From assembly GCF_058153355.1 (NCBI RefSeq), contig NZ_CM177019.1: 64,000 bases of DNA; one strand, 5' to 3'. A program made the translations under genes and the position numbers. Shown piece after piece: positions 7,958 to 35,417 of this stretch. Position 1 is the first letter of the stretch; each line of letters starts with the position of its first letter. The notes beneath the pieces were generated by a model. It saw only the letters and a program-made list of their open reading frames with translations. It ran no database searches and was not told where the DNA came from.

Positions 7958-8168
7958 TCAACCTGCCACACTTCCCCACACCAGTTGCCCTTTATGGAAC
8001 GTTGCGGTACATGGCGAAATACGCGCCACCGCCTCGGCGGAACAGGAGGCGTCCACCAGCACAAAGCTGGCGTCATCCTGCGCTTTTGGCCAAACACGCT
8101 CGCCTTTTTCATTGAGCGGCAATACATCGCCAGTGGCTAAAAACAGCGAGCGGGATAAATTCTGTTCG
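7958..8168 (-). other. yahJ: Out-of-frame C-terminal coding segment of yahJ (displaced by a +1 frameshift)
   Basis: The +1 frame immediately downstream of the yahJ stop encodes 70 aa (NEQNLSRSLFLATGDVLPLNEKGERVWPKAQDDASFVLVDASCSAEAVARISPCTATFHKGQLVWGSVAG) resembling the C-terminal beta-sandwich of amidohydrolases. 390 + 70 = 460 aa matches my recollection of the K-12 YahJ length. Confidence 0.6.
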
Positions 8169-22932: not shown

Positions 22933-24405
22933 ATGTCCCGAATGGCAGAACAGCAGCTTTATATACATGGTGGTTATACCTCCGCCACCAGCGGTCGCAC
23001 CTTCGAGACCATTAACCCGGCCAACGGTAACGTGCTGGCGACCGTGCAGGCCGCCGGGCGTGAGGATGTCGATCGCGCCGTGAAGAGCGCCCAGCAGGGG
23101 CAAAAAATCTGGGCGGCGATGACCGCCATGGAACGCTCGCGCATTCTGCGTCGGGCCGTTGATATTCTGCGCGAACGCAATGACGAACTCGCTAAACTGG
23201 AAACCCTCGACACCGGGAAGGCGTATTCAGAAACCTCAACCGTCGATATCGTTACCGGCGCGGACGTACTGGAGTACTACGCCGGGCTGATCCCGGCGCT
23301 GGAAGGCAGCCAGATCCCGCTACGCGAGACGTCGTTTGTTTATACCCGCAGTGAACCGCTGGGCGTGGTCGCCGGAATTGGCGCATGGAACTACCCGATT
23401 CAGATTGCTTTGTGGAAATCCGCTCCGGCACTGGCCGCAGGCAACGCGATGATATTCAAACCGAGCGAAGTTACCCCGCTTACCGCGTTAAAGCTGGCTG
23501 AAATCTACAGCGAAGCGGGCCTGCCGGACGGCGTATTTAACGTGTTGCCGGGCGTAGGTGCGGAAACCGGGCAGTATCTGACCGAGCATCCGGGCATCGC
23601 CAAAGTGTCGTTTACCGGCGGCGTCGCCAGCGGCAAAAAGGTGATGGCTAACGCGGCGGCCTCTTCCCTGAAAGAGGTGACCATGGAGCTGGGCGGTAAA
23701 TCGCCGCTGATCGTTTTCGACGATGCAGACCTCGATCTCGCTGCCGATATCGCCATGATGGCGAACTTCTTTAGCTCCGGTCAGGTGTGTACCAATGGCA
23801 CCCGCGTGTTTATTCCGGCGAAATGCAAAGCCGCGTTTGAGCAGAAAATACTGGCGCGCGTTGAACGCATTCGCGCGGGCGACGTTTTCGATCCGCAAAC
23901 CAACTTTGGCCCGCTGGTCAGCTTCCCGCATCGCGATAATGTGCTGCGCTATATCGCCAAAGGCAAAGAGGAAGGTGCACGCGTGCTCTGCGGCGGCGAT
24001 GTGCTGAAGGGTGATGGCTTCGATAACGGCGCATGGGTTGCTCCGACCGTGTTCACCGATTGCCGCGACGAAATGACTATCGTGCGCGAAGAGATCTTCG
24101 GCCCGGTGATGTCGCTCCTCACGTATGAGTCTGAAGACGAAGTGATTCGCCGCGCCAATGATACCGACTACGGTCTGGCGGCGGGTATCGTCACGGCGGA
24201 TCTGAACCGCGCGCATCGCGTCATTCATCAGCTGGAAGCCGGCATTTGCTGGATCAACACCTGGGGAGAATCCCCGGCGGAGATGCCCGTTGGCGGTTAC
24301 AAACACTCCGGCATTGGCCGCGAGAACGGCGTGATGACGCTCCAGAGTTATACCCAGGTGAAGTCCATCCAGGTTGAGATGGCTAAATTCCAGTCCATAT
24401 TCTAA
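22933..24405 (+). CDS. betB: Betaine-aldehyde dehydrogenase BetB
   Basis: 490 aa; aldehyde dehydrogenase family including catalytic-Cys region [13 protein letters not shown] and ELGGKSP. Confidence 0.9.
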
Positions 24406-24418
24406 CCAGGAGGTTTAT

Positions 24419-26107
24419 TTGCAATTTGACTACATCATTATTGGCGCCGGCTCTGCCGGCAACGTCCTCGCGACACGTCTGACTGAAGATCCGAACACTA
24501 CCGTGCTGCTGCTTGAAGCGGGCGGCCCGGACTATCGCTTTGACTTCCGTACCCAAATGCCCGCTGCGCTGGCGTTCCCGCTACAGGGTAAACGCTACAA
24601 CTGGGCGTATGAGACCGAGCCGGAACCGTTTATGAACAACCGTCGCATGGAGTGCGGACGCGGTAAGGGGCTTGGTGGATCATCACTGATCAACGGCATG
24701 TGTTACATCCGTGGTAACGCACTGGATCTCGATAACTGGGCGAAAGAACCCGGTCTGGAGAACTGGAGCTACCTCGACTGCCTGCCCTACTACCGCAAGG
24801 CCGAGACGCGCGATGTGGGCGAGAACGACTACCACGGCGGTGATGGCCCGGTAAGCGTGACCACCTCAAAACCGGGTGTCAATCCGCTGTTTGAAGCGAT
24901 GATTGAAGCGGGCGTGCAGGCGGGCTACCCGCGCACGGACGATCTCAACGGCTATCAGCAGGAAGGTTTCGGCCCGATGGACCGCACCGTCACGCCACAG
25001 GGCCGTCGCGCCAGCACCGCGAGGGGTTATCTCGATCAGGCCAAATCGCGCCCGAACCTGACGATTCGTACTCACGCTATGACCGATCACATCATTTTTG
25101 ACGGCAAACGCGCGGTGGGCGTCGAGTGGCTGGAAGGCGACAGCACCATTCCGACCCGCGCGGCGGCGAATAAAGAAGTGCTGTTATGTGCAGGCGCGAT
25201 TGCTTCACCGCAGATCCTGCAACGCTCCGGCGTCGGCAACGCTGGACTGCTGGCGGAGTTTGATATTCCGCTGGTGCATGAATTACCTGGCGTCGGCGAA
25301 AATCTTCAGGATCACCTGGAGATGTATCTGCAATATGAGTGCAAAGAACCGGTTTCCCTCTACCCTGCCCTGCAGTGGTGGAACCAGCCGAAAATCGGCG
25401 CGGAGTGGCTGTTTGGCGGCACCGGCGTGGGTGCCAGCAACCACTTTGAAGCAGGCGGATTTATTCGCAGCCGTGAGGAATTTGCGTGGCCGAATATTCA
25501 GTACCATTTCCTGCCAGTGGCGATTAACTATAACGGCTCGAATGCGGTGAAAGAGCACGGCTTCCAGTGCCATGTCGGATCGATGCGCTCGCCAAGCCGT
25601 GGGCATGTGCGGATTAAATCCCGCGACCCGCACCAGCATCCGGCGATTCTGTTTAACTACATGTCGCACGAGCAGGACTGGCAGGAGTTCCGCGACGCGA
25701 TTCACATCACCCGCGAGATCATGCATCAACCCGCGCTGGATCAATACCGTGGCCGCGAAATCAGCCCTGGTGTCGAATACCAGACGGATGAGCAGCTCGA
25801 TGAGTTCGTGCGTAACCACGCCGAAACCGCGTTTCATCCGTGCGGTACCTGCAAAATGGGTTATGACGAGATGGCAGTGGTTGACGCCGAAGGCCACGTA
25901 CACGGGCTGGAAGGCCTGCGCGTGGTGGATGCGTCAATTATGCCGCAAATTATCACCGGCAATTTGAACGCCACGACGATTATGATTGGCGAGAAAATAG
26001 CGGATATGATTCGCGGGCAAGAAGCGTTGCCGAGGAGTCTGGCGGCGTATTTTGTGGCGAATGGGATGCCAGTAAGAGCGAAAAAACTGAATCGCGATTT
26101 GAACTAA
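24419..26107 (+). CDS. betA: Choline dehydrogenase BetA (GMC oxidoreductase)
   Basis: N-terminal FAD-binding GxGxxG ([12 protein letters not shown]). Apparent TTG start at 24419 (ORF track extends to 24374); exact start uncertain. Confidence 0.85.
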
Positions 26108-27215
26108 CGCAGGAACTTATAAGCTTGAGAGTTACCGTTCTACGATGAGGACCGAATCCTTATATAAAAACATAGGTAACTCTCATGCTTCATATCCGCA
26201 GTCCCGCCATCAAACTTTAAGCCGATTCGCTCAATCTGGCGGATGATGGTGCTATGGATACACTGATAAACCACAAGTGTAATGCCACTCAGCTTAAGAA
26301 TCACGCAACCAGTGCTCCTGGCCAGGGTTACTTGTTCTTTCCCACTCCCGGTTAGCAGTGGTCAGCGATCAACTGCGTAAGCCGGGCGTATTTATCCCAA
26401 AGCGTGGAGTAATATCAGGTCTACGCTAAAAAACTCAATTTATTCGGTTATCATGCACGCAAAGGGGGCTTGTGGCGAGTATAAAAATAAGTCAGACCCA
26501 AAAACTACGTGGAGCTTTAAACACGGTTCGTATAATTTATTAGCAGCGATTTATTTCTACCCTTCTTTAATCAGTCATCATGATTAAATATTTTTTATCA
26601 CAAGATTATCGCTTCTCTAACATTTTATTTTTTATTTATTATCAATTGATAAGAAAAAATTGTTAGTACGTTTTTGCAAAAAATTAAAAGTGTTGGAATA
26701 CACTTAAACAAATGAACAAAAACCAAACAAACTGAGATTTGCAATCAGAAAAAATTATTCAAGAGAACATCTCTAATTTATTGGTAGCGTCCATGAACGA
26801 TGATTTCCTCACAACCAAAAAGTAAAGAAAATCTTATGATAAGATATATTTGTAAATTAGTATTATTAACGTCAAAGATCTTTTCTTTTCTGCACCCTTA
26901 CTTTGCAACGCATAAAAAACAAATAAAATCAATAATATATGCAGAAAAAGTTATTTTACGTAAAAATAACATTAAATAAATCAAGACTATTGAACATCAC
27001 TAAAACATTAGACGTAATACACATTCACCCCCGCTCCTTGACTCAGGGTTTTAATATTTTTTGTTTCACATCATTGTAGAAAAAATCGCGCATTAAAAAT
27101 GAGTTGTAGAAAAACCGCACAATAAATATTTCATATTTTATCTATTGCGTAGAACTACTATTCAAAAAATCTTATTAATGAGATAATGAAATTACATCGA
27201 TAACGTTCTGATTGC

Positions 27216-27248
27216 AGGCACACTTATCTGGGTGTGCCTCTTTTTTTT
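27216..27248 (+). terminator. Intrinsic-terminator-like hairpin plus T-run about 20 bp upstream of the recombinase start codon
   Basis: aggcacac-ttatctgg-gtgtgcct followed by c and eight T (27241-27248); plus-strand orientation, ending 20 nt before the ATG at 27269. Confidence 0.5.
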
Positions 27249-27268
27249 ACAACTGTACACGGTGGCGT

Positions 27269-27889
27269 ATGACGAGAAAATATCTCACACAGGATGAAGT
27301 CTACAGGCTGATGGATGCAGCCCAGAGCATGTCCTTTCCTGAAAGAAATCGCTGTCTAATTATGATGGCTTTCATTCACGGTTTTAGGGCCAGTGAACTT
27401 CTTGATTTACATTTATCCGATATTGATGCATCAGGAAAACAACTTAATATTCGGCGTATTAAAAATGGTTTCTCGACAACACATCCTCTTCTTCCTGATG
27501 AATATAATTTGATCAAGTTGTGGCTTAAGCAGAGGAAGTTAATTGAAAATGGAGTTGAAGGAGACAGGCTTTTTCTCTCCCGGAAACGCCGCCCTATCAG
27601 CAGACAACATTTTTTTTCGATCATTCGTGAGGCAGGAAGACGTGCAGGATTAGCTGTAAAAGCACATCCTCATATGTTACGTCATGCCTGTGGATTTGCT
27701 CTGGCTGACAATGGTGTCGATACCCGACTACTTCAGGATTATCTGGGTCATCGAAATATTCAGCATACTGTCAGATACACAGCCAGTAATGCTGCTCGAT
27801 TTAAAGGGGTGTGGAAAAAAAGCCTCGTTAAAACAGTACCTTCTGATTCAAAATGTCAGATTCCTACGTTTGCCTCAATTCTTCCATAA
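27269..27889 (+). CDS. ipuA: FimB/FimE-family tyrosine site-specific recombinase (IpuA-like)
   Basis: 206 aa from MTRKYLT; aligns along its length with FimE as I recall it (CLIMMAFIHGFRASELLDLH, HPHMLRHACGFALA, catalytic Tyr region GHRNIQHTVRYTASNA). The last 15 codons lie inside the adjacent inverted-repeat switch. Confidence 0.8.
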   Translation: MTRKYLTQDEVYRLMDAAQSMSFPERNRCLIMMAFIHGFRASELLDLHLSDIDASGKQLNIRRIKNGFSTTHPLLPDEYNLIKLWLKQRKLIENGVEGDRLFLSRKRRPISRQHFFSIIREAGRRAGLAVKAHPHMLRHACGFALADNGVDTRLLQDYLGHRNIQHTVRYTASNAARFKGVWKKSLVKTVPSDSKCQIPTFASILP

Positions 27890-28121
27890 AAAAACAGCCC
27901 ATTCAATTAAATAAAACACATAACATGTTGATATTTCTCGCTAAAGTAAAATAACCCCATGATTTGAAATGATTAACCATAAAGGTCATACCAGTGGTTA
28001 ACTTTCACCCACTCTGTTAAATAACACAAAATTAAAAACAATAAAAGTAATAAAAATTAGATTTATATTCCAAGAAAATTAAATATTCAGGTAATTAAAC
28101 CAAACCTGACATTTTGAATCA
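27844..28121. promoter_or_regulatory. Invertible DNA switch (ipuS-like) bounded by 16-bp perfect inverted repeats
   Basis: tgattcaaaatgtcag at 27844-27859 and its exact reverse complement ctgacattttgaatca at 28106-28121, enclosing about 246 bp of AT-rich DNA between a fim-type recombinase gene and a LuxR-type regulator gene. Confidence 0.7.
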
Positions 28122-28160
28122 AAATGTCAGGTTTTGTAGCAATGGCGTGGACGAGTCTGA

Positions 28161-28955
28161 ATGAAGAAGCCTCTGGTTATTATCAGTGCCTGTCAGTTCA
28201 CCAGGCTGGCACTGGAGTCTCTCATCCCAACGGACAGGTATCTCGTGCGGGTGTACAGCAACGTCACTACAGAGGTTGAATTCGTTTTAAAGACCTCCTG
28301 TGGCTACCTGTTAGCTGATATCCCTTCGCTTCCTTCAGGGGAGTTGGTTCTTCTGGCTTGTCTTGTCCGCTTGCGGAGTGATGCCGGGCAATGGCAGGTC
28401 TGCCTGACCGGTGACTCCAACTGGTTCGATAATGCTCCTGTTGCAAGTCTGTACTACGGCTTCCCACGCATAAGCACCCTGCTGACAGCGAGTCGTTATC
28501 AGAATCAAATTATCCGCTGGTTACTACGTCCTTTGCCCGGCGATATGAGCGATTTCTGGCTCCTGACTGCACGGGAGTTGAGCGTGCTTAAGATTCTGAT
28601 GCAGGGCATGAGTTTCAGTGAGATTGCCCGTTATGAACAACGCAGTTCAAAGACCCTGCATGCGATTGCCACACGGGCATTAATGAAACTTGGACTGGGA
28701 ACTCTGAGCGATTTCAGGCTGCTCTATACGGGATGCGGTGACAGCAGAGTGAAACGGAATATACGGCTACATGCAAGATATGTCGGACAACATTCCGCTC
28801 ATCGACTCACTCAGTATGTGCAGAACATGGTATCCGGAATTCTTTATCCAGAGAAAGTTGCCGTTGGTGAATCAATAAATTCTGACGCCATATCCGGAAA
28901 AGTACTTTCCGGACTAAGAAAAAATATGCCTAAAAAAAGACCAGGTTTGTTATGA
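28161..28955 (+). CDS. ipuR: LuxR-family transcriptional regulator (IpuR-like)
   Basis: 264 aa with C-terminal LuxR HTH (LTARELSVLKILMQGMSFSEIARYEQRSSKTLHAIATRALMKLGL); immediately downstream of the switch. Confidence 0.7.
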   Translation: MKKPLVIISACQFTRLALESLIPTDRYLVRVYSNVTTEVEFVLKTSCGYLLADIPSLPSGELVLLACLVRLRSDAGQWQVCLTGDSNWFDNAPVASLYYGFPRISTLLTASRYQNQIIRWLLRPLPGDMSDFWLLTARELSVLKILMQGMSFSEIARYEQRSSKTLHAIATRALMKLGLGTLSDFRLLYTGCGDSRVKRNIRLHARYVGQHSAHRLTQYVQNMVSGILYPEKVAVGESINSDAISGKVLSGLRKNMPKKRPGLL

Positions 28956-29108
28956 CACAGCAGCGTTGTTACTACCCCCCACTGCGGCGCATACGGACTC
29001 GCTACAGTGTAGGAGCCAAAATATTTCTACTGCTCTGGGCTGCAGGATTGGGAGGCACGCTGTACAGCCTGTACAGCGTGCTGGCGTACTGACATCTGTG
29101 AGGGAAGG

Positions 29109-29870
29109 ATGCGTTTCGTTCTTTTCTGTCCCTCAGGAATTGTACCAGCGCAGTTCGCAGCTCTATCAACCGGTTCTGTCGGCAATGTTACCTGCATTGG
29201 AACAGAAGAGGAGTTACGCAATAAATTGCGGCACAGGCCACAGAGTGTCGTGATATCGGCAGGGCGACCTGCCGAATGCGCTGAAATGTGGTTCCGATTT
29301 TATCGGGATCACTCATTCGTGGTGGTGTTGTGCGTCGCGCCCTTTTTTCTGCCACCGGATGTGAGTATTTCTGGCGTTCTCAAAAACCTGAGGTTACTGA
29401 AACCAGGAATGTCAGTAGAGCATGTCATCAGTATTGCAAATGCCTCTGGTGGGTTTTCAGGGCTGAAACATGCAGAAATTTTGCCAGTTATGGACAGTTA
29501 CTCTGTCTTTATGAAAGAGGTGAATAACCGCACAAAGACAATCGTCATGTCAGAACGCTTCCCGGAAAAGCAAAAGAAGGTGTTGTCGTTGCTTCTTGCC
29601 GGACACAGCTGGGAATACAGTGCGCAGTTTCTCAAAACGGGGATAAGACAGATATGGCTTGCCGAGCAGTCGCTAAAAAAGCGTTGGGGAATACCGGACA
29701 GCATGTCATTGCGGGAAGCCCTGCTGCTGAGCAGCAATAAATTTCACGGTGATGGAAATGCATTGGAAGAAACGAATGCCATGACATTGCGTGAAAACGG
29801 AAATACCAACAGGTATTCCGTGGTGGTAAATGCAGGGACGCAGGCTTTATCTCTGCATAAATATAAATAA
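29109..29870 (+). CDS. Putative second regulator with a degenerate LuxR-like C-terminal HTH
   Basis: 253-aa ORF; segment EKQKKVLSLLLAGHSWEYSAQFLKTGIRQIWLAEQSLKKRWG resembles a LuxR-type HTH; true start codon uncertain. Confidence 0.5.
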   Translation: MRFVLFCPSGIVPAQFAALSTGSVGNVTCIGTEEELRNKLRHRPQSVVISAGRPAECAEMWFRFYRDHSFVVVLCVAPFFLPPDVSISGVLKNLRLLKPGMSVEHVISIANASGGFSGLKHAEILPVMDSYSVFMKEVNNRTKTIVMSERFPEKQKKVLSLLLAGHSWEYSAQFLKTGIRQIWLAEQSLKKRWGIPDSMSLREALLLSSNKFHGDGNALEETNAMTLRENGNTNRYSVVVNAGTQALSLHKYK

Positions 29871-29911
29871 GTGGGAAATTGAAATTAGTTACCAGAATGG
29901 AGAATTTCTTC

Positions 29912-32209
29912 ATGAAAAACAGTAAGGCATTTTACCGCAGCGCATTAGCGACAGCTATTGTTATGGCTCTTTCTGCACCAGCATTCGCTGCTGATAACGC
30001 GGTATCAACTACACCGGTTAAGTTGGATAAAAATAAGACGATTCTGGATCAAGATGTTGTTATTAACGGTGATAACAAGATTACAGCCGTAACAATTGAA
30101 ACGTCAAATTCAGATAAAGATCTTAATGTTACTTTTGGCGGTCACGATATTACCGCCGCATCAACGGTAGACCAAGGTTTCGTTGAAGGTGTAAAAGTTA
30201 GCGGTGACAAAAATGTTGTGATTAATGCTACAGGCTCCACCATCACAGCTCAAGGCGAAGGCACCTATGTCCGGACTGCAATGGTCATTTCTTCTACTGG
30301 CGATGTTGTTGTTAATGGCGGTAATTTCGTTGCAAAAAATGAAAAAGGTAGTGCGACAGGGATATCTCTGGAAGGGGCCACGGGAAATAATGTCACGCTC
30401 AATGGCACAACCATAAACGCTCAAGGTAATAAGAGTTCCAGCAACGGCTCTACGGCAATTTTTGCTCAAAAGGGTAGCGTATCGAATGGTTTTAACGGTG
30501 ATGCAACCGACAACATTACCCTTGCTGGCTCAAACATTATTAATGGTCGGATTGAAACAATAGTTACTGCCGGGAATAAGACGGGAATTCATACAGTCAA
30601 CCTGAATATTAAGGATGGCTCAGTAATTGGGGCGGCTAATAATAAACAAACAATTTATGCCTCTGCTTCGGCACAAGGCGCAGGTTCAGCAACGCAAAAT
30701 TTAAATTTGTCTGTTGCTGATTCAACCATCTACTCTGATGTCCTGGCCCTTTCTGCAAGCGAGAATTCAGCCGGTACCACAACAAATGTAAATATGAACG
30801 TTGCCCGCTCTTACTGGGAAGGTAATGCTTATACGCTCAATAGCGGCGATAAAGCGGGTAGTGATCTGGATATAAATCTTTCCGATAGTTCAGTCTGGAA
30901 AGGCAAAGTTTCAGGGGCAGGAGATGCCAACGTATCTCTGCAAAACGGGTCTGTCTGGAATGTTACGGGTTCCTCAACTGTTGATGCTCTGGCAGTAAAA
31001 GACAGTACGGTTAATATCACTAAGGCTACAGTCAATACTGGCACGTTTGCTTCTCAAAACGGCACTCTGATTGTTGATGCCTCTTCTGAAAACACTCTGG
31101 ATATCAGCGGTAAAGCGAGCGGTGACTTGCGTGTTTACAGTGCGGGTTCATTGGATCTTATCAATGAACAAACGGCATTTATTTCTACCGGCAAAGACAG
31201 CACTCTAAAAGCCACAGGCACAACGGAAGGTGGTCTGTATCAATATGACCTGACACAGGGAGCTGATGGTAACTTTTATTTCGTAAAAAACACGCATAAA
31301 GCATCCAACGCCAGCTCCGTGATTCAGGCAATGGCAGCTGCTCCGGCTAACGTCGCTAATCTGCAGGCTGACACGCTCTCCGCCCGTCAGGATGCTGTCC
31401 GTCTGAGCGAAAATGACGAGGGTGGCGTATGGATTCAGTACTTTGGCGGTAAACAGAAACATACCACCGCAGGAAATGCATCCTATGACCTGGATGTAAA
31501 CGGTGTAATGCTGGGTGGTGATACCCGCTTCATGACTGAAGATGGTAGCTGGCTGGCCGGTGTGGCGATGTCTTCTGCGAAAGGTGACATGACCACCATG
31601 CAGAGCAAAGGTGACACTGAAGGTTACAGCTTCCACGCTTACCTGAGCCGCCAGTATAACAACGGTATCTTCATTGATACTGCTGCACAGTTTGGTCATT
31701 ACAGCAACACGGCAGATGTTCGCCTGATGAATGGTGGCGGTACCATCAAAGCTGACTTTAACACCAATGGTTTCGGTGCGATGGTTAAAGGTGGTTACAC
31801 CTGGGAAGACGGTAATGGCCTGTTTATTCAGCCATATGCCAAACTGTCTGCTCTGACTCTGGAAGGTGTGGATTATCAGCTCAACGGCGTGGACGTTCAT
31901 TCTGACAGCTATAACTCTGTGCTGGGTGAGGCCGGTACGCGCGTGGGTTATGACTTCGCTGTGGGCAACGCGACCGTTAAACCTTATTTAAATCTGGCCG
32001 CACTGAACGAATTCTCTGATGGCAACAAAGTCCGTCTGAGTGATGAGTCTGTCAATGCCAGCATTGACGGTGCAGCATTCCGCGTGGGTGCAGGTGTACA
32101 GGCTGATATCACCAAAAACATGGGAGCATATGCAAGCCTTGACTACACCAAAGGTGACGACATTGAGAACCCGCTACAGGGTGTAGTTGGTATCAATGTG
32201 ACCTGGTAA
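29912..32209 (+). CDS. upaE: Autotransporter adhesin (type Va secretion; UpaE-like)
   Basis: Signal peptide (MKNSKAFYRSALATAIVMALSAPAFAADN), Thr/Ser/Asn-rich repetitive passenger, C-terminal beta-barrel translocator ending ..GVVGINVTW. The symbol is assigned from locus context. Confidence 0.7.
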   Translation: MKNSKAFYRSALATAIVMALSAPAFAADNAVSTTPVKLDKNKTILDQDVVINGDNKITAVTIETSNSDKDLNVTFGGHDITAASTVDQGFVEGVKVSGDKNVVINATGSTITAQGEGTYVRTAMVISSTGDVVVNGGNFVAKNEKGSATGISLEGATGNNVTLNGTTINAQGNKSSSNGSTAIFAQKGSVSNGFNGDATDNITLAGSNIINGRIETIVTAGNKTGIHTVNLNIKDGSVIGAANNKQTIYASASAQGAGSATQNLNLSVADSTIYSDVLALSASENSAGTTTNVNMNVARSYWEGNAYTLNSGDKAGSDLDINLSDSSVWKGKVSGAGDANVSLQNGSVWNVTGSSTVDALAVKDSTVNITKATVNTGTFASQNGTLIVDASSENTLDISGKASGDLRVYSAGSLDLINEQTAFISTGKDSTLKATGTTEGGLYQYDLTQGADGNFYFVKNTHKASNASSVIQAMAAAPANVANLQADTLSARQDAVRLSENDEGGVWIQYFGGKQKHTTAGNASYDLDVNGVMLGGDTRFMTEDGSWLAGVAMSSAKGDMTTMQSKGDTEGYSFHAYLSRQYNNGIFIDTAAQFGHYSNTADVRLMNGGGTIKADFNTNGFGAMVKGGYTWEDGNGLFIQPYAKLSALTLEGVDYQLNGVDVHSDSYNSVLGEAGTRVGYDFAVGNATVKPYLNLAALNEFSDGNKVRLSDESVNASIDGAAFRVGAGVQADITKNMGAYASLDYTKGDDIENPLQGVVGINVTW

Positions 32210-32247
32210 GAATAAAGCAGTCGGTTCCCCTGTCGACTGTTATACCC

Positions 32248-32276
32248 CCTGCAGGCAGCAGTATGCTGCCTGCAGG
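32248..32276 (+). terminator. Strong hairpin downstream of the autotransporter gene
   Basis: 12-bp perfect stem cctgcaggcagc / gctgcctgcagg with a 5-nt loop, 39 bp after the stop; no clear T-run. Confidence 0.4.
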
Positions 32277-32392
32277 CTATAAATATCCAGTATTCATGAT
32301 GCTGGCTTTTTGCTGATATTTACCCTGAACATTCCTGATACAGACTATTAATACAACCTTATCTGCGACAGATTTCATTTTCTGGATATATT

Positions 32393-33061
32393 ATGAATGA
32401 ACAAATCAAACAGGATATCGATCTGATTGAGATTTTATTTTATCTGAAGAAAAAGATTCGTGTTATCCTTTTTATTATAGCTATCTGTATGGCAATGGTG
32501 CTGTTGTTTCTGTATATCAATAAAGATAATATAAAAGTGAGTTACAGCCTAAAAATAAACCAGACAACACCAGGCATACTTGTTAGCTGTGATAGCAATA
32601 ATAACTTTGCCTGTCAGACCACAATGACTGAAGATGTTATTCAGCGAATTACTACATTTTTTCACACCAGCCCAGATGTCAAGAACAGAGAAATAAAGCT
32701 GGAATGGTCAGGAGATAAGAGAGATTTACCAACTGCTGAAGCAGAAATATCTCGCGTGCAGGCGTCTATTATCAAATGCTATGCGTCAGAATATCATAAT
32801 GGCAGGCAAGTTCTCGATGAGATACAAACACCTTCAGCAATTAACAGTGAGCTTTATACAAAAATGATATACCTGACCAGGAACTGGTCATTGTATCCGA
32901 ACGGTGATGGCTGTGTAACCATAAGCTCACCGGAAATAAAAAGTAAATATCCTGCTGCCATTTGCCTGATTCTGGGATTTTTTCTAAGCATTGTGATTTC
33001 TGTAATGTTTTGCCTTGTCAAAAAAATGGTAGATGAATACAAACAAAACTCTGGGCAGTAA
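32393..33061 (+). CDS. ykgH: Membrane protein YkgH
   Basis: 222 aa with N- and C-terminal transmembrane helices; position between the island and ykgG matches K-12 order. Confidence 0.75.
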   Translation: MNEQIKQDIDLIEILFYLKKKIRVILFIIAICMAMVLLFLYINKDNIKVSYSLKINQTTPGILVSCDSNNNFACQTTMTEDVIQRITTFFHTSPDVKNREIKLEWSGDKRDLPTAEAEISRVQASIIKCYASEYHNGRQVLDEIQTPSAINSELYTKMIYLTRNWSLYPNGDGCVTISSPEIKSKYPAAICLILGFFLSIVISVMFCLVKKMVDEYKQNSGQ

Positions 33062-33301
33062 TAAACAGCATTCTGATAGAGAGTGCCTGTATAAAGCTGA
33101 AGTGACAATGACCGGGAAGGGAGCCCGTCTTCAGGAATGGATGCCTGTCTTTTTCACTGTAAATATCCTGGCATTATTAATGTCAGGATATTTACAGAAG
33201 AGCAGCATAACCATGACGGAACGGGGTTAAGTCAGGTTGTCCTTAACGCTATTCACAACCTCGTACCGCCTTCAAGTTTATGTCCAGACTTCATATCTCT
33301 C

Positions 33302-33997
33302 TCAGCAATCCTCAATAATCAGATACACCGCTTTCACCGGACCATGAACCCCGACGACTTTGATAAGCTCAATGTCCGCCGTTGAACTAGGACCACTGAT
33401 GATGTTAATACATGACGGCATTCGTTCACCGGCCTGCGCTTTCTGATGCAATTTTTCTGCGAGTTGCGCTACACGCGGCAGGATTGTGCTTTTACGCAGG
33501 ATAAAAAGAGAAGATTCCGGGAGCAGGCTCAATGAACGCCCGCGCCCGGCGGCGGAAAAAAGAACCACGCCACCCGATTCGGTTAAACCATATTCAGCAT
33601 ATACGACGCCCACTTTAGCCTGCTCTGCTTGTGATATGTTCTCAATACCTTTCGCCGGATCCCAAACAACGGCATTGCATTCCTGCTGCAAACGTTCGCT
33701 AATCCCCAATTCCTCCAGCCTCGTGTCACCGCTAATCACGACCGACTGCTCTCCCAGCTCTTTACACAGACATATTGCAGCTTCTGCGGCCTGCGCCTCG
33801 CTGGTCAGTTCACAGCGCGTCAACATAACATCGCTGGCAAACTGGATAAACGCGTCACAGCGCTGCTGTTGGTTAAGTTCGGTAAGCCGCTCGTTAGCAT
33901 AGTTGTTAAGCGGCGCATCTTCTGCTTGCGGTTCAAGTCGCTGCGGGCGACCCAGTGCCTGAGCAACGTTATTCAAAAATTCGCTCCGATTATCCAT
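33302..33997 (-). CDS. ykgG: LutC-family protein YkgG
   Basis: Start at MDNRSEFLNNV gives 231 aa; the ORF track extends upstream to 34150 but that would overlap ykgF. Confidence 0.8.
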   Translation of the reverse strand: MDNRSEFLNNVAQALGRPQRLEPQAEDAPLNNYANERLTELNQQQRCDAFIQFASDVMLTRCELTSEAQAAEAAICLCKELGEQSVVISGDTRLEELGISERLQQECNAVVWDPAKGIENISQAEQAKVGVVYAEYGLTESGGVVLFSAAGRGRSLSLLPESSLFILRKSTILPRVAQLAEKLHQKAQAGERMPSCINIISGPSSTADIELIKVVGVHGPVKAVYLIIEDC

Positions 33998-35417
33998 TCT
34001 TTTTCTCCTGCGCCTGATGTTTCTTAAACCAACTACGGAAACTCTCTCCGTCGGCTTCAGGAAGATCGCGTGCTTCCATCCAGTCGCTAATCGCGCCAAA
34101 TTTGAGTGGTGTTTTGCCGCCATTGATAAACCAGCTTGCCGCATGAGCACCAGCCATCATCCCGACTTTCCACAATCCTGGATGACTATTGGCATAAGCG
34201 AACATTTTTATCGCCCGTTGCTCTGCTTTTGCGGTGATCCCTTTTTCAGCCATCACCCGACGATGACGCAAAATCAGTTTTGACAGCGGAATACGCACCG
34301 GACACACGCTGTCACAAGCTGTGCATAAAGAGCAGGCGTAGGGTAAATCTTTAAAATCTTTATAGCCGCCAAGTAACGGGGAAATCACCGCACCAATTGG
34401 CCCTGGATAAATAGAGCCATATCCATGACCGCCAATATGGCGATATGCCGGACAAATATTCATACAAGCCCCGCAGCGAATACAGCGCAGCACATCCCGA
34501 AATTCAGAAGCCAGCACCTCAGAACGCCCGTTATCGACAATAACCAGATGAAACTCTTCAGGACCATCAACGTGCCCCGCTTCGCGCGGTCCTGTCAGCC
34601 AGGTGTTGTATCCCGTCAAACGTGCACCAACGGCACTGCGCGCCAGCATGGTGATCAATACATCTACCTCGGCAAACGTGGGGGCAATACGCTCCATTCC
34701 CATCACTGCAATATGCGTTTTAGGCAGCGTGGTACACATTCGCGCATTACCTTCATTGGTCACCAGGCATACCGAACCGGTCTCTGCCACCGCGAAATTA
34801 CAGCCGGTAATACCTATTTCAGCACTGAGGAAATCTTCGCGGATTTTTTGCCGAATGAATAAGGTCATCGCTTCAGGCGTTTCCGGCCCCTCATAACCCA
34901 GACGTTCGTGTAGCACTCGACGGATCTGATGGCGATCTTTATGAATTGCCGGGACCACAACATGAGAGGGCGGATCTTGATCCAGCTGGAGAATGTATTC
35001 ACCCAGATCGGTTTCAATCACCTGAATACCAGCATCCTGCAACACATGATTGACACCAATCTCTTCGGTCACCATCGATTTAGATTTCACCACCTTCCGG
35101 GCATTTTTGCGTTGGGCGACCTGTAAAATGTAGCGGGTGGCGTCTTCTTTAGTTTTTGCAAAATAGACGTGACCGCCGTTTTGCGTCACTTTTTCAGAGA
35201 GCTGGTACAGATAAGCGTCGAGATTACTCAGAACATGATCACGTATCTGGGCGGCCCGGTCGCGCCACTCCTCCCAGTGCCCTAATTCATCGACCATTTT
35301 TTGCCGATTTGCCCCAATACGCTGCTGCGCGTTTGCCACCGCTTTGCGCATGATCGGATCTTCAATTTGCTGACGGATGCGTGTCTTAAAATCTGTATTA
35401 CTGGTTTTGATCGACAT
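33990..35417 (-). CDS. ykgF: LutB-family iron-sulfur protein YkgF
   Basis: 475 aa with two 4Fe-4S ferredoxin-type Cys clusters (CIRCGACMNICPAY, CSLCTACDSVCP). Confidence 0.85.
   Translation of the reverse strand: MSIKTSNTDFKTRIRQQIEDPIMRKAVANAQQRIGANRQKMVDELGHWEEWRDRAAQIRDHVLSNLDAYLYQLSEKVTQNGGHVYFAKTKEDATRYILQVAQRKNARKVVKSKSMVTEEIGVNHVLQDAGIQVIETDLGEYILQLDQDPPSHVVVPAIHKDRHQIRRVLHERLGYEGPETPEAMTLFIRQKIREDFLSAEIGITGCNFAVAETGSVCLVTNEGNARMCTTLPKTHIAVMGMERIAPTFAEVDVLITMLARSAVGARLTGYNTWLTGPREAGHVDGPEEFHLVIVDNGRSEVLASEFRDVLRCIRCGACMNICPAYRHIGGHGYGSIYPGPIGAVISPLLGGYKDFKDLPYACSLCTACDSVCPVRIPLSKLILRHRRVMAEKGITAKAEQRAIKMFAYANSHPGLWKVGMMAGAHAASWFINGGKTPLKFGAISDWMEARDLPEADGESFRSWFKKHQAQEKKNG

Follow-up and report, generated by a model that had tools for sequence, protein, structure and literature searches.

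The stretch of DNA analyzed here (hereafter the window) covers 64,000 nucleotides (nt) of contig NZ_CM177019.1 from the NCBI RefSeq assembly GCF_058153355.1, and all coordinates are given as window positions. Between the choline dehydrogenase gene betA and ykgH, it carries four genes which, according to the open reading frame (ORF) listing and family searches, encode an invertase, a GerE/LuxR protein, a protein without assigned family and an autotransporter. The betA stop codon (26107) and the ykgH start codon (32393) lie about 6.2 kb apart, while in Escherichia coli K-12 MG1655 the two genes (b0311 and b0310, respectively) are annotated as neighbours with 212 bp between them. The K-12-derived locus aligned to positions 24100-26197 and 32283-34398 and to nothing between, leaving 6,085 bp (26198-32282, plus strand) without K-12 counterpart and with a guanine-plus-cytosine (GC) content of 43.8%. 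A first-pass annotation, made from the sequence alone, had placed ykgH next to betA in K-12, had counted about 6.2 kb of additional DNA in the window and had proposed a low-GC accessory island. All of this held, and the same genes, looked for between betA and ykgH of K-12 in the alignment and in the MG1655 annotation, were not there. The island limits it had drawn (26108-32392) are replaced by 26198-32282, as given by the K-12 alignment.

Strains SCU-171 and APEC O2-211 displayed a collinear region, 97% identical to the window over 10.3 kb, whose genes are named ipbA ("also known as HbiF and FimX"), hyxR, hyxA and hyxB in RefSeq. The pathogenicity island PAI-X is made up of fimX and hyxRAB (upaB being another name of hyxB), was present in 24 of 50 genomes and had been regarded as exclusive to E. 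coli (PMC3789825). An insertion between betA and ykgH of 43.08% GC has been reported under the name of UpaB cluster (PMC4844996). The window presents the betA-ykgH site, the gene order ipbA/fimX, hyxR, hyxA, hyxB/upaB, and the switch hyxS with 16-bp inverted repeats between fimX and hyxR. We identify the interval, with a probability of roughly 0.96, as PAI-X (other published names are UpaB cluster and GI-4), an accessory islet of 6.1 kb and low GC content occupying a fixed intergenic site of E. coli, and nothing found contradicts this identification. Gene identities, exact boundaries, switch anatomy, inversion of the switch in nature and presence/absence polymorphism are matters of direct observation, while the island itself had already been described in every essential respect, and its recognition here is an annotation result rather than a discovery. 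From the classical (Hacker-type) set of pathogenicity island traits, only a deviant GC content was found. The 64-kb window holds no transfer RNA (tRNA) or tmRNA gene, and the island contains no insertion sequence (IS) and no phage-type integrase, its sole recombinase being of the invertase type; long flanking repeats and a size above 10 kb were also missing. As the element measures only 6,085 bp and GC content is the sole classical trait it displays, islet is the more accurate word.

The first gene, ipbA (also fimX or hbiF; 27269-27889, plus strand), encodes a Fim-type tyrosine DNA invertase of 206 amino acids with a Pfam Phage_integrase match, scoring above cut-off for both NCBIfam NF007370 (243.3 bits, cut-off 221) and NF007371 (236.9 bits, cut-off 222). 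A run of adenines at 27815-27821 counts seven bases (A7) in the window and eight (A8) in the five reference genomes aligned, and this frameshift swaps the last 3 IpbA residues for a 22-amino-acid tail. Because of the shifted frame, the ipbA ORF runs through the left inverted repeat into hyxS; as the tail enters the invertible element, the C-terminus would depend on the switch orientation, as described for ipuA/ipuS. The same 206-amino-acid product was called in three other assemblies, and A7 is therefore no one-off sequencing error.

The invertible switch hyxS (27844-28130) is delimited by the 16-bp core TGATTCAAAATGTCAG, present at 27844-27859 on the plus strand and at 28106-28121 on the minus strand, around an interior of 27.1% GC. 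A third copy of the core, direct and with one mismatch (28115-28130, plus strand), overlaps the inverted one, so that the right end of hyxS is a palindrome. Chance would account for 0.07 occurrences of the core, against the three places where it was found. The length of the cores agrees with that of the published hyxS repeats (PMC6083910), and FimX has been reported to invert hyxS at 16-bp inverted repeats, driving hyxR (PMC6083910, PMC6458436). When hyxS was inverted in silico between the cores, the construct aligned over its full length and in one piece to 16 of 1,891 island-bearing genomes (94.5 to 98% identity), the rest matching only in pieces; NZ_CM142796.1 and APEC O18 are examples of the opposite orientation. 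Both orientations of hyxS therefore occur in nature, and the window carries that of the majority. In Escherichia sp. MOD1-EC7003, about 250 bp of the hyxS interior were missing (at positions ~1150-1170 of its sequence, corresponding to window positions 27858/28109), the left repeat being followed at once by that half of the palindromic right repeat which is in direct orientation, a loss which appears as expected from recombinase excision between directly repeated cores.

Downstream of the switch, hyxR (also autR; 28161-28955, plus strand) encodes a LuxR/GerE-type regulator of 264 amino acids with a Pfam GerE domain at residues 135-181, and hyxA (also autA; 29109-29870, plus strand) a protein of 253 amino acids matching no Pfam or NCBIfam family, both genes being named after RefSeq. 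Public assemblies contained the exact HyxA protein on 11 contigs, the surrounding genes being the same in each. HyxA was considered as a HyxR paralogue and this was rejected, the two proteins sharing no significant similarity. A GerE-like helix-turn-helix was predicted and tested for both AutA and AutR, and both proteins bind the upaB promoter (PMC4844996). The recombinase, the switch, the autotransporter and the GerE/LuxR nature of HyxR were thus as the first-pass annotation had them, while its plural "LuxR regulators" stands in part only, HyxA having no family match. The last gene, hyxB (also upaB; 29912-32209, plus strand, with an ATG at 29912), encodes an autotransporter adhesin of 765 amino acids with a signal peptide (Pfam Autotransporter, TIGR01414). 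Identity of hyxB between strains was 92 to 97% in the 5' half and 98 to 100% in the 3' half, which makes the passenger half the most variable coding part. A perfect hairpin with a 13-bp stem lies 3' of hyxB at the right end of the island (32248-32276, plus strand; -28.7 kcal/mol, z = -6.5), within the DNA that K-12 lacks.

Base composition was uneven along the locus. The island (43.8% GC) compares with 55.5% in the left flank, 48.8% in the whole window and 36.5% in ykgH. The 1.1-kb stretch upstream of ipbA (26108-27215), said to be very AT-rich with long A/T tracts, averaged 33.8% GC without being uniform: only 26445-27215 was strongly AT-rich (28.5%), while the left-end segment of the island (26198-26444) was at 47.8%. 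Mixed A/T runs reached 21 nt, homopolymer runs of A or T no more than 6 nt. The left-end segment includes an indel of about 90 bp (~26358-26444), present in the window and missing from the alleles of Nissle 1917, O157 and 00-3076, as well as a minus-strand open frame (26190-26357) without homologues outside E. coli. This frame was tried as the remnant of a mobility gene, without support: it had no Pfam match and the searches (tblastn against a plasmid collection and a search of 5.8 billion proteins) returned only E. coli's own "hypothetical protein" copies. Its protein identity (~59% by a rough count) was lower than its DNA identity (81%), hence no constraint is visible on it.

The non-coding stretch as a whole (26198-27268) was only about 81% identical to Nissle, O157 and 00-3076, against 95 to 99% for ipbA, hyxR and hyxA, and the matrix of pairwise identities displayed three allele groups. 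Divergence was concentrated in a hypervariable AT-rich spacer (26445-27060), where these three groups run deep across strains. Identity to Nissle and O157 amounted to 80-90% at 26463-26670, to 53-78% at 26700-27050 and to 90-98% at 27115-27268. An ORF of 59 amino acids (26800-26979) was discarded as a gene, lying in the least conserved part and without family match. By comparison, the block adjacent to ipbA (27061-27268, plus strand), with a direct repeat and a terminator-like hairpin, was 92 to 98% identical across allele groups. These last ~210 bp before ipbA hardly differed even in Escherichia sp. MOD1-EC7003, its alignment as a whole (26749-27858) being 88.7% identical. The imperfect 24-bp direct repeat reported by the first pass was recovered, with copies at 27074-27097 and 27104-27127 (the second ending at 27127 rather than 27125), an exact 11-mer in common and agreement at 20 of 24 positions with one gap. 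It is modestly above chance, as 13 of 300 dinucleotide shuffles of the AT-rich stretch reached the 11-mer and 6 of 300 the alignment score. The terminator scan and folding placed the hairpin, with a run of eight T, at 27216-27248, its end lying 20 nt ahead of the ATG of ipbA. No Rfam family was above threshold in 25800-32700 or 26950-27320. A match to IS102 RNA was set aside, being driven by the terminator hairpin and scoring 25.8 bits where the gathering score is 46.

Judged from these patterns of conservation, the AT-rich 1.1 kb would be a long upstream region of ipbA, composed of a constrained block adjoining the gene and, farther away, a spacer that evolves fast, and the 210 bp nearest ipbA a probable conserved control region rather than inert acquired DNA. 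As for the working of the islet, regulation by HyxR and HyxA and the associated phenotypes are taken from the literature. IpbA/FimX, of the FimB/FimE type, flips the adjacent AT-rich promoter element hyxS (~260 bp) at its 16-bp inverted repeats, turning hyxR on or off, and also acts in trans on fimS. HyxR and HyxA control the downstream adhesin HyxB/UpaB and many other genes. A tentative extension, which we would not expect to hold in full, takes 27061-27268 for an unrecognised control region, where a regulator bound at the tandem motif (copies 30 bp apart) and attenuation at the hairpin would set the level of invertase and hence the switching of both hyxS and fimS; the palindromic right end would allow the invertase to delete hyxS permanently, as apparently happened in MOD1-EC7003. 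The main reading has some weak points. A consensus scan gave no sigma-70 match inside 27860-28105, where the literature reports a promoter (PMC3789825, PMC6083910), and a simple consensus scan gave no promoter match upstream of ipbA either. The tandem motif and the terminator-like hairpin have a putative function only, and the activity of the A7 invertase in the lineage of the window is assumed. The stretch could instead be plain H-NS-silenced foreign DNA devoid of sequence-specific function, in line with the first-pass annotation, which had seen in it the type of horizontally acquired DNA silenced by H-NS. The 28.5% GC over 26445-27215, the very fast evolution of the distal part (53 to 78% identity between alleles) and the lack of any conserved ORF or Rfam family above threshold would agree with such a view. 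It nevertheless seems unlikely, given that the 210 bp by ipbA were kept at 92 to 98% across alleles differing by about 20% just upstream and were nearly invariant in another Escherichia species, and that both copies of the tandem motif and the hairpin were retained. PAI-X genes were moreover expressed in a transcriptome, and strongly up-regulated in a lysogen, and are reported as inducible (PMC12922286), and H-NS binding and a regulatory role can coexist. AT-richness (28.5% GC over 26445-27215, 27.1% in the hyxS interior) was the only H-NS-type trait seen here, and the literature search found no H-NS chromatin immunoprecipitation data on the island.

At the ends of the island, the motif ATATCC occurs at both junctions (26192-26197 on the left and, as placed by the alignment to K-12, 32283-32288 on the right). 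K-12 has a single CATATCCAGT at the same point, its empty site carrying one CTTCATATCCAGTATTC where the window has the two copies. The perfect 6-bp duplication is common to the window and APEC O2-211 and confined to their allele group. The left junction was degenerate in other alleles (CAT|CGTGAC in Nissle 1917, CATA|GTGAC in O157), which differ by an edge patch of about 12 nt. The 6-bp ATATCC duplication is the true junction mark, in the allele group of the window only, and fits an insertion with target duplication and a microhomology deletion equally. A second structure stands just outside, 3' of betA: a hairpin at 26121-26190 (plus strand), with 16-nt arms (26121-26136 and 26175-26190, one mismatch; perfect 11-mers at 26126-26136 and 26175-26185) and a 38-nt loop containing an inner hairpin, which folds as RNA at -33.9 kcal/mol (z = -6.7). 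The inverted repeat noticed at the betA edge therefore exists, with arms reaching 16 nt rather than 11 and a spacer of 38 rather than 36 nt.

Frequencies were obtained by megablast against 5,426 complete E. coli genomes. Of these, 5,223 matched the interval with its flanks, 1,831 with coverage of 80% or more at a single place. For the island alone, some match was obtained in 1,925 genomes, and 80% or more was covered at a single place in 1,534. Island-free matches listed spanned 1,208 to 1,212 bp, and an identical junction was read directly in K-12 and in strain 24A16CRGN010; in every island-free genome examined, betA stood beside ykgH with the same junction. Island genes differed by 1 to 5% between strains, similar to neighbouring core genes. 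When 100,044 species representatives were scanned for HyxA, a single match was obtained, in Escherichia sp. MOD1-EC7003 (92% amino-acid identity, on a 2.8-kb contig without the junctions), where hyxR and hyxA had 94% nucleotide identity. The E. coli entry among these representatives is presumably K-12, which is island-free. Divergence of 1 to 5% together with carriage by MOD1-EC7003 implies that the island is old in Escherichia. Among complete genomes, the closest relative of the window by its flanks was island-free, so that similar flank haplotypes occur with and without the island. YkgH homologues were tried as a route to outgroup junctions and abandoned, since all matches were from E. coli or Escherichia, and the two divergent ones followed up were an ordinary island-positive strain and a frameshift-ridden assembly.

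Three accounts of how the island came to its site, or left it, were weighed against this record. The betA-edge hairpin had been suggested to be a boundary scar, or could be an attachment site of the island, and its position at most 7 nt from the true left junction (26197/26198) would suit either role. Both arms, with identical sequence, and the inner hairpin were present in the island-free K-12 and 24A16CRGN010, and no matching repeat was present at the right end (the 32248-32276 hairpin being unrelated in sequence). The position on the betA strand, in the 3' untranslated region of betA, and the strong RNA fold agree with a stem-loop at the 3' end of the bet transcript. Lying within the K-12-aligned part, with the same arms in island-free strains, the hairpin belongs to the conserved betA 3' flank and is no scar, and we consider the scar or attachment-site reading extremely improbable. 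A self-mobile integrative element with IpbA as its integrase would be compatible with a tyrosine recombinase encoded near one island end, and yet is hardly credible. IpbA (187 to 206 amino acids) is an invertase-type protein that gives a match to the catalytic domain only and has FimB/FimE-type invertases as its best families, the junctions share just 6 bp that do not resemble the hyxS core, no tRNA gene occurs in the window, and the island is single-copy and confined to one place of the chromosome in almost all genomes, the exceptions seen being IS-mediated. Loss of the island deserves more weight. According to this scenario, the island would be ancestral in E. coli and related Escherichia, the K-12-type empty site having been made once by illegitimate recombination between the ATATCC copies, and the window would represent the retained state. 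The exact flanking of the island by ATATCC, single-copy in empty sites, the one junction common to all empty sites examined, the age of the island (divergence like that of core genes and the MOD1-EC7003 homologues) and the empty site of the closest flank relative all speak for it. It is countered by the equal fit of a 6-bp duplication to insertion, by the lack of the left ATATCC in the Nissle and O157 alleles, and by the low GC content and the finding of a single carrier among the representatives of other species scanned, which show that the DNA was acquired at some time. Deletion can be held as plausible, at somewhat less than even odds. For PAI-X as identified here, persistence and spread would most likely proceed by vertical descent and homologous recombination of the flanks.

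Some strains carry altered forms of the island. In O157:H7 FRIK2069 it is decayed, with a frameshifted ipbA, an internal stop in hyxR and hyxB split by a deletion of about 1 kb (window positions 30994-32030). In strain 23753, ipbA is cut short by an IS1 and there is no bet operon. In RM14721, copies of IS66 and IS1 enclose a truncated ipbA together with hyxRAB and a gene resembling ykgH, without adjacent bet genes in the stretch examined, and an IS3 remnant with a group II intron and an integrase gene are found nearby.

The PAI-X of the uropathogenic strains UTI89, CFT073 and EC958 is reportedly made of fimX-hyxS-hyxRAB (Bateman & Seed 2012, Bateman et al. 2013 and Phan et al. 2013). The window shares with these islands the same four genes, their order, the betA-ykgH site and the 16-bp hyxS cores, and is 97 to 99% identical in nucleotides to the island-positive allele of Nissle 1917 in ipbA, hyxR and hyxA. 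It differs from known PAI-X by its ipbA upstream region (only some 81% identity with the alleles of Nissle and O157, and about 90 bp in addition), by the A7 frameshift extending IpbA to 206 amino acids and by the perfect left ATATCC. The fimB/fimE-fimS system has a recombinase of the same family (NF007370 and NF007371 above cut-off) and the same mechanism of promoter inversion, and fimB, as ipbA does, has a long AT-rich upstream regulatory region. It is distinguished by 9-bp repeats, a fimbrial operon as target and a place in the core genome. In avian pathogenic E. coli, the locus itself goes by the names UpaB cluster and GI-4 (autA, autR, upaB; PMC4844996), at 43.08% against 43.8% GC; its recombinase was called a "phage integrase" there, while the family match obtained here is to invertases, and no other difference of substance was noted. 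The ipuA/ipuB-ipuS-ipuR-upaE module of CFT073 (PMC6083910) likewise combines a Fim-type invertase, an adjacent invertible promoter of about 260 bp, a regulator of LuxR type and an autotransporter. The inverted repeat of ipuS falls within the ORF of the recombinase, so that inversion alters the C-terminus, and the A7 ipbA of the window similarly reads through the left repeat. The ipu module nonetheless occupies another locus with other genes, has 7-bp repeats and lacks a hyxA counterpart. The Salmonella T1-antigen switch comprises STM0716 and an invertible promoter, and is reported (PMC11294581) to have a FimX orthologue of 72% identity, inverted repeats with exactly the PAI-X sequence and a protein, STM0718, 39% identical to HyxA; it differs by belonging to another genus and by targeting a polysaccharide gene cluster.

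On the left flank, betA (24419-26107, plus strand) is present in its 562-amino-acid form (NCBIfam TIGR01810, 1021 bits), and the RefSeq betA of SCU-171 maps there. Its C-terminus has two forms, independent of the island (window positions 26080-26107): 562 amino acids in the window, SCU-171, APEC O2-211, O157 and 24A16CRGN010, and 556 in K-12 and Nissle, where one base fewer after an A6 run leads to an early stop. The 3' half of betA was unusually polymorphic, with 82 to 98% identity between the strains compared. On the right flank, ykgH (32393-33061, plus strand; 36.5% GC) had homologues only in Escherichia, was truncated in 24A16CRGN010 and is a pseudogene in O157; it may itself be old acquired DNA. 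Its match to the N-terminus of the Wzz chain-length determinant was below threshold (20.1 bits against 25.5), and a functional tie between ykgH and the influence on O-antigen chain length reported for hyxA/hyxR would be pure speculation. A 41-bp palindrome in the ykgH-ykgG intergenic region (33157-33197), found in all strains compared, may be a bidirectional terminator between these convergent genes. Identity to K-12 was about 94.5% (0.90 to 0.98 per 500-bp segment) from at least position 8000 through the bet operon and ykgH, and about 98% from ~34000 on. For the segments tested, no complete E. coli genome reached 99% identity, the best being 97.2% for the left flank and 98.6 to 98.9% for the right. 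A Logan contig (SRR31441161) was 100% identical over 12.7 kb, and GCA_015332025.1 was listed in the same context. By these comparisons, the window belongs to an E. coli lineage for which complete genomes are scarce.

PAI-X has served as a marker of uropathogenic E. coli. To the existing descriptions, the present analysis adds island boundaries at base-pair resolution, with the flank hairpin excluded from the island, a division of the region upstream of the invertase gene into a strongly conserved core and a hypervariable spacer, and natural cases in which the switch is inverted or deleted or the invertase gene is frameshifted. These offer small, testable leads on the control of recombinase dosage and on the stability of the switch.

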